A stretch of DNA of 21,544 bases from a virus. Its lineage: Duplodnaviria > Heunggongvirae > Uroviricota > Caudoviricetes. The translations under genes were made by a program, and so were the position numbers. Shown in pieces: positions 386 through 5,743 of the stretch. Below the pieces are notes generated by a model that was not told where the DNA came from, did not search any database, and saw only the letters and a list, made by a program, of their open reading frames with translations. The stretch's first letter is position 1, and every line of letters begins with the position of its first letter. The DNA is taken from the IMG/VR virus record IMGVR_UViG_2537561688_000020, one strand, 5' to 3'.

Positions 386-1624
386 ATGGCGCTGTCTGAT
401 GCGTGGTTGCGTTCAGTCGTTGGAAAGGAACGTGATAAGGTTTTGGTTAAATCCGATCGTGATGGTCTGTCTGTCAGAGTATCACCGAAAGGTCGCGTAG
501 TGTTCCAATATCGTTATCAATGGGCAGGGAAAGGTGAGCGCCTTGATATCGGAACTTACCCGGCAACTGGATTAAAAGAGGCCAGAGAAGAAGTTATCCG
601 TCTCCGTGGTGAACTCGAGTCAAACCGCAATCCACGATTAGTCAAGCAGGCTGAAAAACGAAAAGCTACTGAAGCCATGACGGTAGAGTCTGTGATCCGT
701 GCCTGGTATGAAGCATATTGTGTAAAAAATAAAAAAGGTTCTGAACAGATACTCCGCTCGTTTGAGCTGCACCTGTTCTCTAAAATCGGGAATATCCCTC
801 ACGATGCAGCTACATTGCATGATTGGTTAGAAGTCCTAGAGCCTCTTAGCACCAAGACTCCAGCAATAGTAGACCGATTGCTAATTAACGCAAAGCAGGC
901 TCATGTCTGGGCGTATAAGAGAAAGCTCATTGAAACTCGCCCACTGTCGGATATCACGGGTAAAGATATGGATATCCGTAAAGGTCAGAAAAAACGGTTT
1001 CTGACACATGATGAAATTAGCATCCTTTATGCTGCGATCGATGGTTCTCGAATGGTTCCTAAATACCGAGCCTTCATTAAACTATTGCTGCATTTTGGTT
1101 GCCGTAGTTCAGAGCTAATTACTGCTAGGGTGGATGATTTTGATTTCATAAATAAGGTATGGACTGTACCACCAGAACGACATAAGACTGGGGACATAAC
1201 AGGCGAACCGCTAAAGCGGCCCATTATTGAACCGGTTGAAGAGCTTATAAAATACGTTATCTCTATGAACAACGGTTCCGATATGCTTTTTACTAAGGAA
1301 GGAAGCAGGGAGCCAGTTGGTCGGACATCATTGCAGTCGCTGCCTTACAATTTAATGCAGTTCGCATGGCGACGTTTGGGGTATCAATTTCCTCATTGGT
1401 CTCTTCATGATTTGAGACGAACAGCACGAACAAACTTTTCTGATCTTACTGCGCCTCATATTGCTGAAATAATGCTCGGTCATAAACTGCCAGGGGTATG
1501 GCAAGTTTATGATAAGAGCGATTATCTAGAAGAACAGCGTAAAGCCTATCAGGCATGGTGGGATAGGGTTGAATCGATTCTTACTTACACTAATTTAGGT
1601 TCCAACAGACAGCCTATTGAATAA
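386..1624 (+). CDS. int: Phage tyrosine integrase (P4-type, N-terminal arm-binding domain)
   Basis: 412-aa ORF. N-terminal arm-binding-like region (LSVRVSPKGRVVFQYRYQWAGKGERLDIGTYP). C-terminal catalytic signatures HDLRRTARTNF and a downstream Tyr (VWQVYDKSDY). Sits next to the att-like prfC fragment. Confidence 0.9.
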   Translation: MALSDAWLRSVVGKERDKVLVKSDRDGLSVRVSPKGRVVFQYRYQWAGKGERLDIGTYPATGLKEAREEVIRLRGELESNRNPRLVKQAEKRKATEAMTVESVIRAWYEAYCVKNKKGSEQILRSFELHLFSKIGNIPHDAATLHDWLEVLEPLSTKTPAIVDRLLINAKQAHVWAYKRKLIETRPLSDITGKDMDIRKGQKKRFLTHDEISILYAAIDGSRMVPKYRAFIKLLLHFGCRSSELITARVDDFDFINKVWTVPPERHKTGDITGEPLKRPIIEPVEELIKYVISMNNGSDMLFTKEGSREPVGRTSLQSLPYNLMQFAWRRLGYQFPHWSLHDLRRTARTNFSDLTAPHIAEIMLGHKLPGVWQVYDKSDYLEEQRKAYQAWWDRVESILTYTNLGSNRQPIE

Positions 1625-1738
1625 TGAATAGACATACAGAGTAAGAAAATAGTAATGATTCTTGGATTATAATTAACTGATTGCTGATATTTCGATTTGC
1701 CGATTTATGAAGAGACGGTCATTATACTTATAAAAACA

Positions 1739-1770
1739 CCACTCCTTATCCTTACAGAAATAAGGAGTGG
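1739..1770. terminator. Bidirectional hairpin between convergent int and deaminase genes
   Basis: Inverted repeat ccactccttat (1739-1749) / ataaggagtgg (1760-1770) with a 10-nt loop. Flanked by an A-run on the + strand and a T-run on the - strand (reverse complement of 1731-1738). Confidence 0.5.
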
Positions 1771-1776
1771 AAACAG

Positions 1777-3372
1777 TTATGGCTGAGACTCTGGTTTAGC
1801 AATCTCGTTTATAAATTTCTTAGCTACAACAGTCTCATACTTTCTATAATCATCAAGATATTGAACATCTATATGATTTTTGTAGCGAGCATTAAATTTA
1901 TTTGCAGCCCCTGTTTTATCATCTTTACGTTCATCCGTTGGTCTGAAAAATTTATGGTAGCGGCGGGGTGATACCCCCTCAAAATCACAAAATATTACTT
2001 TGGAAGATTCTTCGTTCTTTGTTATTGCATCATTATGCAGATCAAGAGCAAGGCTTTTATCAAATGGCTCTATATATACTACTTTTTTTATTCCAGATGC
2101 GACAATATGCCTTGCACAGTTGTGGCAGGGGTAGGTTGTCGTAAAAAGAATTTTATCTTTAGTATCGCCGTTTTGTTTTCTAGCCATTGATGTAATGACG
2201 TCCATTTCAGCATGAATTGATCTGGAGTACTCCATTACACTTGATATTTTGCTGTCTTTGTAAATGCCTTCTGCAATATTATCTAATTTGTTTAGAAGTC
2301 GTGTTATATTAATATCGGCAACAGTTTGTCCTGCGGAAATACCTAATACACTTCTTACTTCGGTTGATAATATGCTTTTTATACGGTCTTTAATTTTTAG
2401 CTTGTTTGCATCATTATAACACTTACCACTTTTGTGAACGCATCGATGATCGTTATCAAAATCATCACTGCTATACAACCCGCCACCAGCTTTAGGTACG
2501 TCGTTCTTACCCACGGCAAGCAAATTCCCTTCATCATCAAACAGTGCAGCCCCTACTTGACGTGATAAACAAGCTGATTGTAATGATGTTGAAAAGGCAG
2601 CATACATACCTTTCTCGTTAAAAGTTGGTGTTAAACCATTTTTGCCATGAATAAGACCGAAAAACCGATCAATCTTCTTCTTTAATTCACTTTTTTGGCT
2701 GAAGTTATTTTTAATAAAAAAATCTGAATCAAGAATGGTTTCCCCGGTTCTTTGTCCATACGGATCAGAGGATTTATTATCAATATTGATAATTAAATGA
2801 AGGTCGTCCTTTGCCGATTCGTCAGCAATGAGATTCGGAATTCGGTAATCTAAATCGCGCAAAACTCCTAACAAATAGAAATTATGCTGATATATAACTC
2901 TGAATAACTCTATTTCTTCCGGCCTTTTGAATTGATCAATGATGAAGACAGTACCTTTATATTCATCATTATTATAATCAATATTCTTTTTCGCTGTTGC
3001 GATTGCTGCAATAGCAGCTTCTGCAAGCAACTCATTTTTTTCGTAATGTTTACGAAGTTTATTGGCAATATCCTGGAGTTTTAAATGTCTATTAACTTGT
3101 GTGCTTTCGGATACCTTCAGTGCTGCTGGCTCAAAATATAATGGGTCTTCCATAAGCGCACTTATGCGGATGTGTACAACATTATCCCCCCATTCTTTGG
3201 ATATCTCTTCGATAATTTTGTTTATCGTTCTCATGCCACATCCAACATATCCACACAATCCAAGATAAATATCTTTTGATTGTCGTGAATTCACAATCTC
3301 AAGTGATGATGCCGATGTTGAGCCTTTTTTTTCATTCAGCTTTTGTGGAGTTTTTTTTGCTGCTTCAGCCAT
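1777..3372 (-). CDS. dcdV: DcdV-like anti-phage deoxycytidylate (dCTP/dCMP) deaminase: N-terminal P-loop-like domain fused to C-terminal zinc CDA-fold deaminase
   Basis: 531-aa ORF. C-terminal zinc-deaminase signature: CLSRQVGAALF, then HAE (H387/E389), then PCHNC (C416/C419) and GIKKVVY, as in dCMP deaminases. N-terminal glycine-rich P-loop-like stretch GLCGYVGCGMRT. About 32% GC in a sampled stretch versus about 60% in the replication genes. Int-proximal cargo position. Confidence 0.7.
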   Translation of the reverse strand: MAEAAKKTPQKLNEKKGSTSASSLEIVNSRQSKDIYLGLCGYVGCGMRTINKIIEEISKEWGDNVVHIRISALMEDPLYFEPAALKVSESTQVNRHLKLQDIANKLRKHYEKNELLAEAAIAAIATAKKNIDYNNDEYKGTVFIIDQFKRPEEIELFRVIYQHNFYLLGVLRDLDYRIPNLIADESAKDDLHLIINIDNKSSDPYGQRTGETILDSDFFIKNNFSQKSELKKKIDRFFGLIHGKNGLTPTFNEKGMYAAFSTSLQSACLSRQVGAALFDDEGNLLAVGKNDVPKAGGGLYSSDDFDNDHRCVHKSGKCYNDANKLKIKDRIKSILSTEVRSVLGISAGQTVADINITRLLNKLDNIAEGIYKDSKISSVMEYSRSIHAEMDVITSMARKQNGDTKDKILFTTTYPCHNCARHIVASGIKKVVYIEPFDKSLALDLHNDAITKNEESSKVIFCDFEGVSPRRYHKFFRPTDERKDDKTGAANKFNARYKNHIDVQYLDDYRKYETVVAKKFINEIAKPESQP

Positions 3373-3382
3373 TGCTAATTAC

Positions 3383-3568
3383 CTAGTCGAAAACTATATC
3401 AGTATTTAATATTTCAAAAAATGCATCAAGAATTTCTTTATTTTTCTTTTTACTTTCAAATGAAATGACATTATCTTGATTAAATGTTGTTAATTCAATG
3501 CAGATAGAATCAACCTGATCATTGGCGGCGATGCTCGATTCTATTTCATTAAATGCTATTACATTCAT
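3383..3568 (-). CDS. Small acidic hypothetical protein directly upstream of the deaminase gene (may instead be non-coding leader)
   Basis: 61-aa ORF ending 10 nt before the deaminase start codon on the same strand. AT-rich, no recognisable domain, weak RBS. Confidence 0.3.
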   Translation of the reverse strand: MNVIAFNEIESSIAANDQVDSICIELTTFNQDNVISFESKKKNKEILDAFFEILNTDIVFD

Positions 3569-3912
3569 TTATCTTATCCAAACATAATAAAAAACCATAT
3601 GGCCTTTAGTGTACAACAAAACCATACTCTTTCCCCTCATTTTAGAGGGGGAAGTGTGGTCCACATCATGTTTTTTCCCACCCATGAAAATGTTCACCTA
3701 GGCTGGTGAGGCATTTTATGTACATCAACTCTTTGAGTTGAATCATTATTTTAGTATTTTTTCTATCATTGTGTAAATGTCTTCGTTTCAATACATCATG
3801 CTTGGGGAGCGGTCCCCGTTTCCTGATAATTAATGCTTGTGGATAGCAACGTCCGTGCCTGTATCGCTCAGACAGACGCTTACCGTGCCATAGACGTGTC
3901 TGTTCACATACG

Positions 3913-4107
3913 TCATTCAATAACTCCTGCAAACCTGTAAATCTTGCGTGAAGCCCATTTATTTGGGCATGATTTAATATCAGGATCTGGAAAATCAGGC
4001 CTGTACTTCTGGCCAGTTCTCCGGTTTACGCTGTTCCAGCGAAGAACTGTCGATACTGAAACGCCACAGAAGTCGGCGACTTGTTTAGTTGTCATTAAGT
4101 TGTTCAT
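3913..4107 (-). CDS. Excisionase/AlpA-like HTH DNA-binding protein
   Basis: 64-aa ORF with the motif MTTKQVADFCGVSVSTVLRWN typical of small phage excisionase-family HTH proteins. Start codon overlaps the upstream gene stop (TAATG). Confidence 0.65.
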   Translation of the reverse strand: MNNLMTTKQVADFCGVSVSTVLRWNSVNRRTGQKYRPDFPDPDIKSCPNKWASRKIYRFAGVIE

Positions 4108-4727
4108 TACTTCACCTCCTGCGGCGGTTCCGGTAGCGGCATCCAGTGGGTTACTTTCGATGCCGGTTCTTCTCCATTGTCAGTAACTGCCCACCATTTG
4201 TTTCTCGAACAATCATAATACCCTTCGAAGGTATCGCACTCAGTCCAGCCGTAAGACTTACCCCAACACCAAACATACTGTTTATCGTTCGGCATTCGCT
4301 CACTACAGCTTATCCAACCATCCGGAGTTACCGGAGAGTTGCCCGACAGCTTGTTCAACTTGTAAGTCTGGCTTACAGGTTTGGCACCATGAAGCATGGT
4401 GGCGCGGCAGGTGTTCCAGCCTTCATCAAAACCGACTATGCCATTATTTAAAGACGGACGAGCATCTGGCACCACCAGTACTGGCTTGGCTATATATAGC
4501 GGCTGAACATACCAGCCCTTTGATAACCAACTGTCAGCAATGTTTTTGCTCCTGGTTATTGCCGGAATACCTAAGCCATTGTCTGAATGCAGCCATGCCA
4601 CCGGCTCCTCTTCCAGCGATGCCAGAGCAATTTCATAAGCACGGCGCTCAATATCGTCTCGAACCTCTAGGCTGCTGATTCGTTCTTTGATTTCTTTAAT
4701 CAGTTCTTTATTGGTAAATGTGGTCAT
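4107..4727 (-). CDS. DUF551-domain phage protein
   Basis: 206-aa ORF with the DUF551 hallmark C-terminus (KVTHWMPLPEPP). Translationally coupled to neighbours. Confidence 0.7.
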   Translation of the reverse strand: MTTFTNKELIKEIKERISSLEVRDDIERRAYEIALASLEEEPVAWLHSDNGLGIPAITRSKNIADSWLSKGWYVQPLYIAKPVLVVPDARPSLNNGIVGFDEGWNTCRATMLHGAKPVSQTYKLNKLSGNSPVTPDGWISCSERMPNDKQYVWCWGKSYGWTECDTFEGYYDCSRNKWWAVTDNGEEPASKVTHWMPLPEPPQEVK

Positions 4728-5089
4728 TATGCTCCAGCCTCCGGCGCTTTGGGTATTACTGCCCAGTGAGTGATATTGAAGTTTTCAAGGTCCCCGACCT
4801 GAAATGTCCACTGCCATTCTCCGGTTTCTTTTTGTCCCCAGGTGTACCAGAGAGAACGCCAGCCAATCAGCCAGCCTTCTCCGTTAGCATCAAATAACAG
4901 AACACTTTCATTTGCTGGTGGCAGTTCAGCTGACACTGGTATTATTTTGTTTTCCAGTGCCGCACATTTAGCTTCAAGCGCGTCGAATTTACGTACCAGG
5001 TACTCAGCATTTGTTTCGTTCACTTTCAGATCTCGCGGTACACATTTCCCGCGAAGAAACCCTTCCATTTCGAAAACATTCATGCGCAT
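4727..5089 (-). CDS. DUF551-like phage protein
   Basis: 120-aa ORF with Trp-rich C-terminus ending ITHWAVIPKAPE. Overlaps neighbours by a few nt. Confidence 0.55.
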   Translation of the reverse strand: MRMNVFEMEGFLRGKCVPRDLKVNETNAEYLVRKFDALEAKCAALENKIIPVSAELPPANESVLLFDANGEGWLIGWRSLWYTWGQKETGEWQWTFQVGDLENFNITHWAVIPKAPEAGA

Positions 5090-5616
5090 TTGCGTAACTC
5101 CGATAATTCGTTAAAGCGTTCCATAAACATCCCGTAGGCATGGCCTGGAGCCAGTGGAATCACGTTGATCATCTCTGTTGCCGGGATACCTTCCAGCACA
5201 GGCCAGAAAGAGCCATCATCAAGCCCGAGATCGCGGCGTTCGGTTGCCAGCATGATGAGATCGGCATATTTCACGGGTGTACTCATAACCGGGGGTAACC
5301 CGTATTTCTCACGGATTACGGCGTCTATTTTTTCTTCCATCCGTTTATAGTCAGGAAGAAGGCGTTTCAGTGGAGCCGGGATGTCCTGGCAATACGCTTC
5401 TGTTGCATCATGCATTAAGGCTTCAAAAGCAAATTCCTGCGGCACCAGCTGGCTGCAAAGAACCGCATGTTGGGCGACGCTGTAGAAGTGCGAAAGATGA
5501 CCGGCAAAGCGACAGATATTTGAAAGGGAAACCGCGATATCGTTAATATTGATGTCGTCTTTATTTATCTTGTCATAATAAAAATGCTTCCCGGAAAAAG
5601 TTTTAATAAATGACAT
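5080..5616 (-). CDS. HD-domain phosphohydrolase, YfdR-like 5'-deoxynucleotidase
   Basis: HD-superfamily metal-binding motifs (H...HD...D pattern: SVAQHAV, LMHDATEAY). Start chosen at the internal ATG (5614-5616) preceded by GGAG at -6; the ORF-track start at 5643 lacks an RBS. Product is 178 aa. Confidence 0.7.
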   Translation of the reverse strand: MSFIKTFSGKHFYYDKINKDDININDIAVSLSNICRFAGHLSHFYSVAQHAVLCSQLVPQEFAFEALMHDATEAYCQDIPAPLKRLLPDYKRMEEKIDAVIREKYGLPPVMSTPVKYADLIMLATERRDLGLDDGSFWPVLEGIPATEMINVIPLAPGHAYGMFMERFNELSELRKCA

Positions 5617-5743
5617 TTTGTTCTCCACGTATATGCGCTGCACCGCGCTGAATTCTGGTAAAAAGAATCCCTCACCATCCGGCGATTATTGAGTAAATTA
5701 CGTTTCCATAAATGCCCCCGCAGGGGCATTTGCAGTAATGAAA

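Follow-up and report, generated by a model that had tools for sequence, protein, structure and literature searches.

What is an AT-rich gene that runs convergently with the integrase gene doing between the integrase and excisionase genes of a lambdoid Escherichia coli prophage? The preliminary description of the window (the whole 21,544-nt stretch of viral DNA considered here) had read the gene as a DcdV-like fusion of P-loop and deoxycytidylate deaminase domains and hence as a candidate anti-phage defence. Our analysis indicates that the region is, with little doubt, an intact AvcID (DcdV-DifV) module, horizontally acquired and carried as a moron in the int-xis slot (Table 1). AvcID is an already described, named and annotated defence system: about 49 complete E. 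coli genomes carry this gene under the RefSeq name 'anti-phage dCTP deaminase'. As a finding, this is an ordinary one, a further instance of a system described in 2022 and already annotated in RefSeq. In E. coli, defence systems are most often carried by prophages (PMC10121019), so defence cargo is expected at such a position. It does illustrate that a two-domain defence enzyme can be recognised correctly by a sequence-only reading.

Table 1. Features of the AvcID region and its flanks (window coordinates).
Feature	Coordinates	Strand	Remarks
int	386..1624	+	Phage_integrase, Arm-DNA-bind_3; convergent with avcD
Variable cargo slot	1611..3916		between 3' end of int and 3' end of xis; AT-rich
Intrinsic terminator of avcD	1739..1770	-	13-bp stem, then TGTTTTTATA on the minus strand
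avcD (dcdV)	1777..3372	-	531 aa, ATG start; anti-phage dCTP/dCMP deaminase by family
Deaminase active site H387-A-E389 ... P415-C416-H-N-C419	2116..2214	-	all invariant in alignment
Walker-B-like D146-Q147	2932..2937	-	invariant in alignment; equivalent to DcdV D162/Q163
Non-canonical P-loop GLCGYVGCGMRT	3226..3261	-	aa 38-49 of AvcD
61-aa small ORF	3383..3568	-	position of cognate inhibitor AvcI (DifV); 186-nt region
Candidate RNA hairpin in small ORF	3497..3550	-	helices 3550-3547/3500-3497 and 3542-3537/3511-3506
Possible sigma-70 promoter TTTACA-18-TAAAAT	3748..3777	-	10/12 matches; ~180 nt upstream of small ORF; uncertain
xis (excisionase, 64 aa)	3913..4107	-	PHROG phrog_1553, E 7.7e-36; annotated 'excisionase' in phage 2H10

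The preliminary description had claimed a minus-strand ORF of this length carrying deaminase and P-loop motifs, and our results agree with it in detail. The ORF is present, and every motif falls at the residue given, with CLSRQVGAALF at 268-278, HAE at 387-389, PCHNC at 415-419 and GIKKVVY at 427-433 following the P-loop. The protein divides into a P-loop-kinase-like N-terminal domain (residues ~30-243) and a zinc CDA-fold deaminase C-terminal domain (residues ~250-480). The profile searches that had been proposed as a check place it above the cut-off of the NCBIfam equivalog NF041025, 'anti-phage dCTP deaminase' (456.3 bits over profile positions 2-437 of 437; curated cut-off 400 bits), and match it to the PADLOC dCTPase model PDLC02373 at 535.7 bits (E 5.1e-161), where it aligns to positions 131-556 of 630. 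A Pfam deaminase domain was also found, and all the proposed checks that lend themselves to computation gave positive results. These matches support the claim of a DcdV-like fusion and, by analogy with characterised family members, the proposed role in anti-phage defence; only the status of 'candidate' does not stand, because the system was already named. The properties of DcdV that the description had given (532 aa, E384, C411/C414) are likewise correct (bioRxiv 10.1101/2021.03.31.437871).

Conservation extends to each of the residues known from mutagenesis to matter. The zinc ligands are H387, C416 and C419 and the catalytic residue is E389, and the equivalent active-site positions in DcdV are H382/E384/C411/C414. 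Among 32 homologues C40, G41 and G44 of the P-loop are invariant and G46 is nearly so; M47 occupies the position of the Walker-A lysine, and T49 aligns with DcdV S52. Published substitutions bear on the same sites: DcdV S52K abolishes activity and the D162A+Q163A double mutant is inactive (Hsueh et al., bioRxiv 10.1101/2021.03.31.437871), while G29A/C30A in the AW1.7 enzyme leads to loss of defence (Tal et al. 2022). The mutationally validated residues are all kept across the 32 homologues, with T49 standing for S52, together with D146/Q147, H387/E389 and C416/C419. The intact ORF and the presence of every invariant residue also led us to reject a decayed pseudogene.

A different function is suggested by the deaminase core, whose closest relatives by sequence and fold are the dCMP/dCTP deaminases of T4, cyanophage S-TIM5 and a chlorovirus, and dCMP deaminase families appear among the secondary PHROGs matches. 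The gene could accordingly be imagined as a nucleotide-metabolism dCMP deaminase, like T4 cd, that feeds dUMP/dTTP to prophage replication and has nothing to do with defence. The T4 (1vq2), S-TIM5 (4p9c) and PBCV-1 (bi-DCD, 7fh4) enzymes do share the zinc CDA fold and HAE...PCxxC chemistry with AvcD. However, they are biosynthetic rather than defensive and lack a kinase-like domain, an upstream inhibitor and the ~85-aa insert that AvcD carries between beta-strand 2 and the HAE helix; such stand-alone enzymes are only 140-190 aa long, whereas the fused domain and the insert of AvcD fit the defence family above its equivalog cut-off. They also keep the allosteric dCTP/dTTP site, whereas AvcD has GKND (G288-K-N290-D291; the G, N and D are invariant) where biosynthetic dCMP deaminases have the allosteric G[YW]NG; DcdV, with GCND at this place, has likewise been noted to have lost it. 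Further arguments against a biosynthetic role are the location of the gene in a lysogeny-side moron slot with its own terminator, its foreign composition, and its exchange among plasmids and ICEs. Given the full-length architecture, GKND, the slot and the composition, we rejected a biosynthetic phage dCMP deaminase as extremely improbable, and we regard AvcD as a member of the defensive family.

The genomic setting is that of mobile cargo: copies of the module recur beside integrases, within conjugative tra regions, on small plasmids and near the ends of IMG/VR viral contigs. Comparison with phage 2H10, whose int is 94.5% identical and whose xis and downstream genes are 96.6% identical, shows homology stopping at window position 1610 and restarting at 3917, with an unrelated 239-aa gene in between, as expected from the earlier proposal of a cargo slot between int and xis. 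The avcD ORF has a GC content of 35.8% and the stretch 1625-3912 one of 35.5%, whereas the remainder of the window stands at 48.5%. The preliminary description had contrasted ~32% GC in a sampled stretch with ~60% in the replication genes; the first figure is fair, GC being as low as 30-32.5% in single 400-nt windows of the island, but the second is too high, since no 400-nt window exceeds 58.3% and the replication region (~10.3-11.1 kb by the RefSeq map) lies at ~48-52%. It was also right about the convergence with int and about the presence of a hairpin between the two genes, although not demonstrably about the hairpin being bidirectional. The plus-strand reading of 1739-1770 runs into AAACAG and a T run follows on the minus-strand reading only, so the hairpin is best described as avcD's own terminator. 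Moreover, it lies within a stretch that this module shares with its counterparts in Morganella and Providencia and is therefore part of the cargo rather than of int. The assignment of the sigma-70 promoter in Table 1 is uncertain because promoter-like sites in the region are not enriched over shuffled sequences (7 against 10.4 expected). Finally, the span that had been described took in the 61-aa ORF upstream of avcD, yet left the AvcI/DifV inhibitor locus uninterpreted.

The presence of this ORF at the AvcI (DifV) position makes the unit a two-part AvcID toxin-antitoxin module. Its TAG stop lies 10 nt ahead of the avcD start codon and is part of an invariant TAGG that resembles a Shine-Dalgarno element for avcD. 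The ORF matches PHROG phrog_9966 at 147.7 bits, and homologues, also of 61 aa, occur in many Enterobacterales. A small upstream ORF is found at 64 of 80 related loci (22 +/- 4 in shuffles) and at all ten loci of the closest clade, 3-12 nt upstream of avcD. Family membership, both folds, essential-residue conservation, the two-part architecture and the mobile cargo context are thus all results of the present analysis.

The nearest experimentally tested relative is AvcID of plasmid p58 from ETEC H10407 (WP_000951932.1 with the 61-aa WP_000070788.1). Its deaminase is 61% identical to AvcD over the full length (531/532 aa), shares all catalytic and P-loop residues and is likewise classed as an 'anti-phage dCTP deaminase', and its 61-aa ORF lies 12 nt upstream. 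Both small ORFs end in ...IL(N/K)x(D/E)I(I/V)(F/L)D-TAGG, 10-12 nt upstream of the deaminase, but apart from the C-terminal ~20 aa they have diverged beyond BLASTP (E 0.74, not significant, for one small ORF against the other), and their homology is visible only through a clade multi-sequence alignment and profile comparison. The carriers also differ, being a 5.8-kb mobilisable plasmid in ETEC and a prophage here. The ETEC deaminase causes filamentation and depletion of deoxycytidine nucleotides, and the ORF region preceding its gene suppresses this cognate enzyme (Hsueh et al., bioRxiv 10.1101/2021.03.31.437871); the ETEC module protects against T3, SECphi17, SECphi18 and SECphi27 (PMC10511110). 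Inhibition in ETEC is cognate-specific (Hsueh et al., bioRxiv 10.1101/2021.03.31.437871), so cross-inhibition with the module described here would not be expected.

AvcD/AvcI of Vibrio cholerae VSP-I (DcdV/DifV, VC0175) is more distant, with a deaminase ~45% identical to AvcD that has the same two domains, active-site spacing and Walker-B DQ. It too has an upstream inhibitor locus, which in V. cholerae is on a shared transcript with the deaminase. The Vibrio small ORF, however, is 56 aa long, lies 77 nt upstream and ends ...AKQLGW, as opposed to 10 nt upstream and ...DIVFD for the type found here, and its context is VSP-I adjoining CBASS rather than a lambdoid prophage. The defensive dCTP deaminases of E. 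coli AW1.7 and U09 belong to the same family by the PADLOC and NCBIfam models. Both their kinase-like and deaminase domains are needed for defence, dCTP falls on infection, and activation is tied to interference with host RNA polymerase (Tal et al. 2022). The AW1.7 protein, at 576 aa and with its own numbering (C370/C401; G29/C30), is likened to AvcD through the family models only.

These precedents suggest how the module probably works. AvcD is a two-domain enzyme, kinase-like and deaminase, and a labile inhibitor would be encoded directly upstream. In a lysogen both parts would be expressed, with AvcD kept inactive post-translationally. A lytic phage that shuts off host transcription would cause the short-lived inhibitor to be lost, and the freed AvcD would convert dCTP and dCMP to dUTP and dUMP; the resulting collapse of the deoxycytidine pool would stall phage DNA replication or yield defective virions. 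Loss of AvcI after transcription shut-off has been demonstrated by Hsueh et al. 2023, and T7 escape mutants map to RNA polymerase-modifying genes (Tal et al. 2022). The resident lambdoid prophage would presumably leave its own module untriggered, since it brings about no shut-off of host transcription. Published homologues are the source for the enzymatic activity, the action of the upstream locus as inhibitor, transcription shut-off as the trigger and the protection from phage, and we infer that this allele behaves as they do; 39% of its residues differ from those of the nearest tested homologue (ETEC H10407), and defence spectra vary between AvcID homologues.

Because the deaminase alone causes filamentation that is neutralised by the upstream locus (bioRxiv 10.1101/2021.03.31.437871), it is also conceivable that the module serves mainly in addiction, stabilising the prophage as a toxin-antitoxin system of the post-segregational or anti-excision kind, with defence being incidental. 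Its occurrence on small plasmids and conjugative elements as well as in prophages, together with its place at the int-proximal end of the prophage, would suit such a role. On the other hand, infection activates the homologues, whose protection against several phages has been measured, and overexpressed AvcD is reported to arrest growth reversibly rather than to kill. The two roles are compatible, neither excluding the other, but addiction as the main function seems improbable to us and defence remains the preferred reading.

The chemical nature of the inhibitor is a more finely balanced matter. AvcI has been published as a non-coding RNA, and a possibly new observation is that, even so, the amino-acid sequences of the ORFs in the inhibitor position are conserved between distant taxa. 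Among relatives of the small ORF, frame and the 61-aa length are kept at 57-89% nucleotide identity, third codon positions take most of the substitutions (10/5/30 in the pair L090-L088, for instance), and dN/dS ranges from 0.05 to 0.76, being below 0.45 in 17 of 20 computable pairs. The upstream ORFs of distant taxa end in Trp-stop in 40 of 80 cases, with 0.34 expected, and show third-position entropies of 1.90-1.98 bits at conserved Ala, Ala and Leu columns; the avcI ORFs of V. cholerae and V. parahaemolyticus share this amino-acid conservation, with a dN/dS of 0.38. The two ORF types, that of the window's clade and the Trp-ending one, are linked by hhalign (E 2e-4, probability 46%) through a shared NV[IV]xF, basic stretch and helix. 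It may be, therefore, although we would put it at somewhat below an even chance, that the locus known as a non-coding RNA is also protein-coding, in V. cholerae as well as in other Gamma- and Betaproteobacteria and beyond. The putative product would have 45-90 aa, be under purifying selection and comprise NV[IV]xF, a linker of basic character and, at the C terminus, an amphipathic helix whose end reads A-x-K-L-x-W-stop in the majority of lineages but AFxEILNTDIIFD-stop in the clade of the window.

Whether such a product would itself be the inhibitor is a narrower question. The coding signals above are what would be seen if the inhibitor in this clade were the 61-aa protein (type II-like), or an RNA of dual function whose translation is also required, and the stop codon sits in an invariant TAGG 7-12 nt short of the avcD start, an arrangement suggestive of translational coupling. 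The RNA of 3373-3600 folds no more stably than shuffled sequences (z +0.69), so a highly structured sRNA is unsupported apart from one local hairpin. Furthermore, a 4-nt deletion at the 3' end of the V. cholerae ORF killed activity (bioRxiv 10.1101/2021.03.31.437871), and with these 4 nt the terminal Trp or the stop codon would be lost. Against this, V. cholerae mutants in which the ORF start was changed to a stop still inhibit (Hsueh et al., bioRxiv 10.1101/2021.03.31.437871), and in later papers, a review among them, AvcI is presented as a non-coding RNA: it is described as binding AvcD and inhibiting it directly, and its level drops on infection. The hairpin inside the ORF also shows covariation above controls: RNAalifold on 10 relatives finds its arms GAATC/GATTC swapped between relatives, hairpin cells are paired in 85.7% of cases (71.2% in shuffles, 34-47% with partners slid), and double changes occur in 7 of 10 pairs; these 10 sequences also served to derive the structure, which makes the evidence weak. 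An Rfam scan of 1500-4300 gave no score near a gathering threshold, with a library that holds no AvcI family, and an AF2 model of the peptide alone is of low confidence (pLDDT 52), arguing neither for nor against a folded peptide. On balance, we consider a protein or obligately translated inhibitor less likely than not. If the AvcI peptide does prove functional, it would be the inhibitor or sensor of AvcD, or contribute to it; AvcID would then count among toxin-antitoxin systems as type II-like or of dual function (RNA and peptide), and no longer as purely type III, and both the type III (RNA-antitoxin) classification and the model of transcription shut-off sensing would need revision.

Lastly, IS421 and IS1A insertions disrupt the module in some E. 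coli strains, which shows that it is dispensable or costly.

The minus-strand avcD (dcdV) ORF belongs to an already known system: the gene is named, modelled and annotated, and a tested homologue is 61% identical. Its 531-aa product scores 456 bits against the NCBIfam equivalog NF041025 'anti-phage dCTP deaminase' (curated cut-off 400), matches the PADLOC dCTPase model (5e-161) and contains a Pfam dCMP_cyt_deam_1 domain (4.8e-15). DNA at least 98.5% identical is found in 49 of 5,426 complete E. coli genomes, where RefSeq already uses the name 'anti-phage dCTP deaminase' (WP_001399668.1) and the lambdoid prophage is integrated beside yjjG. The family is large: at E <= 1e-10 it comprises over 5,600 database clusters. 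Across an alignment of 32 homologues (identity down to 40%), no variation is seen at, among others, C40, G41 and G44 in the glycine-rich loop, at D146-Q147, or at H387, E389, C416 and C419. These match the sites at which V. cholerae DcdV is inactivated (S52K, D162A+Q163A, E384A and C411A+C414A; Hsueh et al., bioRxiv 10.1101/2021.03.31.437871), as well as the loop and zinc-ligand sites whose mutation abolishes defence by the E. coli AW1.7 enzyme (Tal et al. 2022). Together, the models, the alignment and this match to mutated residues confirm both domain assignments: a C-terminal zinc deaminase, and an N-terminal domain whose 'degenerate P-loop', as the preliminary description termed it, has Met47 at the Walker-A lysine position. 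The ORF and all the motifs quoted there were found at the residues given; the observation is thus confirmed, and its interpretation as a DcdV-like defence gene is supported. Compared with stand-alone dCMP deaminases, the deaminase domain also has an insert of ~85 aa (aa ~296-380; window 2230-2485) with invariant D308-x-R310-C311...C318-x-N320...K324, two long helices and a cysteine loop with pLDDT <50. This insert may provide a second metal site or act in regulation or inhibitor binding.

Features of the avcD island and its flanking genes (window coordinates, or residues of the avcD product where stated)
Feature	Position	Strand	Details
int	386..1624	+	integrase catalytic, arm-binding and central domains
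Terminator hairpin	1739-1770	-	13-bp; T run after stem on minus-strand reading only
avcD ORF	1777..3372	-	531 aa
Small ORF	3383..3568	-	61 aa; 10 nt upstream of avcD, same strand
Excisionase (xis)	3913..4107	-	64 aa; PHROG phrog_1553, E 7.7e-36
Glycine-rich loop GLCGYVGCGMRT	residues 38-49		
Deaminase motif CLSRQVGAALF	residues 268-278		
Deaminase motif HAE	residues 387-389		
Deaminase motif PCHNC	residues 415-419		
Deaminase motif GIKKVVY	residues 427-433		
Shared with Providencia module copy	1641-3787		
Shared with Morganella module copy	1720-3700		
Shared with Enterobacter kobei module copy	1789-3598		

The gene lies in an AT-rich island, as a sample of about 32% GC had indicated: the avcD ORF has 35.8% GC and the interval 1625-3912 has 35.5%, against 48.5% in the remaining window, with local minima of 30-32.5%. 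The 60% GC ascribed to the replication genes was too high, no 400-nt window exceeding 58.3%. Nor is the hairpin beyond the 3' end of avcD shown to be bidirectional, as had been proposed; its T run places it as the terminator of the deaminase. The claim that the island is a cargo slot between int and xis held up in a comparison with phage 2H10, a relative in which a near-identical copy of the 64-aa xis ORF carries an excisionase annotation. The two phages match at 94.5% in int and at 96.6% in xis and the downstream genes, but homology stops at 1610 and restarts at 3917, and the 2H10 gene in between is unrelated. We therefore regard 1611-3916 as a genuine variable cargo slot. The stretches shared with module copies in three other genera define the mobile unit as the terminator, avcD, the small ORF and 100-200 nt of upstream DNA. 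Other carriers include E. kobei, where the module lies beside a different, lambda-type integrase at icd (L086), conjugative tra regions (L088/L093), a site beside a Rep3 replication gene (L090) and small plasmids (such as p58). The small ORF and avcD travel as a cassette across unrelated carriers, comprising two integrase families, ICE/conjugative-plasmid transfer regions and small mobilisable plasmids. Twelve IMG/VR viral contigs likewise contain copies, at 81% identity or more, in most cases no further than a few kilobases from a contig end.

Among experimentally studied relatives, the window deaminase is closest to one encoded by ETEC H10407 plasmid p58, the 61% identity extending over the full length. 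The p58 enzyme causes filamentation and dC-nucleotide depletion, and is suppressed by the small-ORF region just upstream, in the cognate pair only (Hsueh et al., bioRxiv 10.1101/2021.03.31.437871). On p58 a 61-aa ORF stops 12 nt short of the deaminase gene; the window has a matching layout (61 aa, 10 nt). This small ORF fell within the span 1777-3568 originally delineated but had been left uninterpreted. Such pairs are now named AvcID, in which AvcD is the toxin. Its antitoxin AvcI is, by published description, a labile non-coding RNA: it binds AvcD and disappears when an infecting phage shuts down host transcription (PMC10511110; review).

A further observation concerns the upstream regions. 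Of 80 related loci taken from GTDB species genomes (L006-L085), 64 have an ORF of 40-120 aa on the same strand that ends no more than 125 nt from the deaminase start, against 22 +/- 4 when the upstream sequence is shuffled, and 40 of the 80 have a Trp-stop ending where 0.34 would be expected. The translations are interrelated (111 BLASTP pairs, E < 1e-3). Over the 22 C-terminal codons, Ala -14, hydrophobic -10, Ala -6, Lys -4, Leu -3 and Trp -1 form columns conserved at codon positions 1-2, with near-maximal entropy at position 3 (1.90-1.98 bits for the two Ala columns and Leu). Judged from the alignment, this pattern is the signature of selection on amino-acid sequence, not RNA sequence. The avcI ORFs of V. 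cholerae and V. parahaemolyticus fall in this set (ending in ATRALLEQAKQLGW and a stop; dN/dS 0.38), and other ORF pairs give 0.11-0.43; ORFs at the AvcI position lie at 2253-2423 in the V. cholerae locus L095 and at 2248-2424 in locus L097. Members of the window's clade keep the frame and length of the small ORF (mostly 61-66 aa, one up to 84 aa), which ends in AFxEILNTDIIFD followed by an invariant TAGG, 7-12 nt from the avcD ATG in all members except one (L093, 3 nt). Third-position changes predominate in this clade, with dN/dS of 0.05-0.76 (<0.45 in 17 of 20 computable pairs). Homologues from Escherichia, Klebsiella, Salmonella, Serratia, Yersinia, Proteus, Morganella, Enterobacter and Cronobacter have no annotation beyond 'hypothetical protein'. 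The two C-terminal types are tied together by hhalign (E 2e-4, probability 46%), sharing NV[IV]xF, a basic stretch and a helix. Profile searches of Pfam and NCBIfam returned no family for the small ORFs, and PHROGs places the window's in phrog_9966 (function unknown).

Constraint may also act on the RNA. A hairpin inside the small ORF (3550..3497, minus strand) has, across 10 sequences, more compensatory changes than shuffled or slid controls, and its arms swap from GAATC/GATTC to GATTC/GAATC in relatives; it may be an RNA-level AvcI element overlaid on the coding sequence. Folding of the whole small-ORF RNA gave a stability that is not unusual. Translation of the ORF was argued to be dispensable in V. 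cholerae (Hsueh et al., bioRxiv 10.1101/2021.03.31.437871), and we therefore present a tension: the AvcI locus is under protein-level selection yet is treated as non-coding in the literature. We did not find such selection stated in the Hsueh et al. preprint, PMC10511110 or the review. That the locus encodes a functional small protein is a tentative proposal, to which we give slightly less than even weight.

The window allele has the family membership, folds, conserved residues and architecture of the studied homologues and, by analogy, would have the same activity; we consider it very probable that it forms an AvcID defence module working as they do. Based upon the published work, the lysogen would produce both components, with AvcD kept inactive post-translationally. 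When a lytic phage shuts down host transcription, the inhibitor would rapidly be lost, and the freed AvcD would deaminate dCTP and dCMP, collapsing the dC pool such that phage genome replication fails or defective particles are made. Fast replicators such as T7 can outrun some homologues (bioRxiv 10.1101/2021.03.31.437871; Tal et al. 2022; PMC10511110). The resident lambdoid prophage would presumably leave its own module untriggered, because it would not shut off host transcription.

Insertions of IS421, IS1A or both occur in the module in several E. coli strains of bovine, pig and human origin (OkiPb01676; also H61, H64-H66). IS421 lies in the 3' part of avcD (~1966-1977 equivalent), cutting AvcD to 462 aa, and IS1A lies upstream of the small ORF (~3613-3623 equivalent), between it and the putative promoter. 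These insertions suggest that the module is sometimes inactivated or rewired. The IS1A sites are directly downstream of a short G+C-rich hairpin (3623-3641, minus strand; CCCCTC-TAAAAT-GAGGGG; no clear T tail). This hairpin lies ~60 nt from the small ORF, on its upstream side, and could be an attenuator, a site of processing or a terminator for transcription from the xis side. In V. cholerae L095 (GCA_032027525.2; 4062-6391), avcD has 521 aa rather than 532 and is followed immediately by IS66-family genes, suggesting that its C-terminus was truncated or replaced through IS66 insertion. Finally, a YfdR-type 5'-deoxynucleotidase (HD domain, RefSeq annotation) and a DUF551 protein are encoded just past xis (5080-5643 and 4107-4727, both minus strand); the presence of a second nucleotide-pool enzyme near a dC-depleting defence gene may be coincidence.
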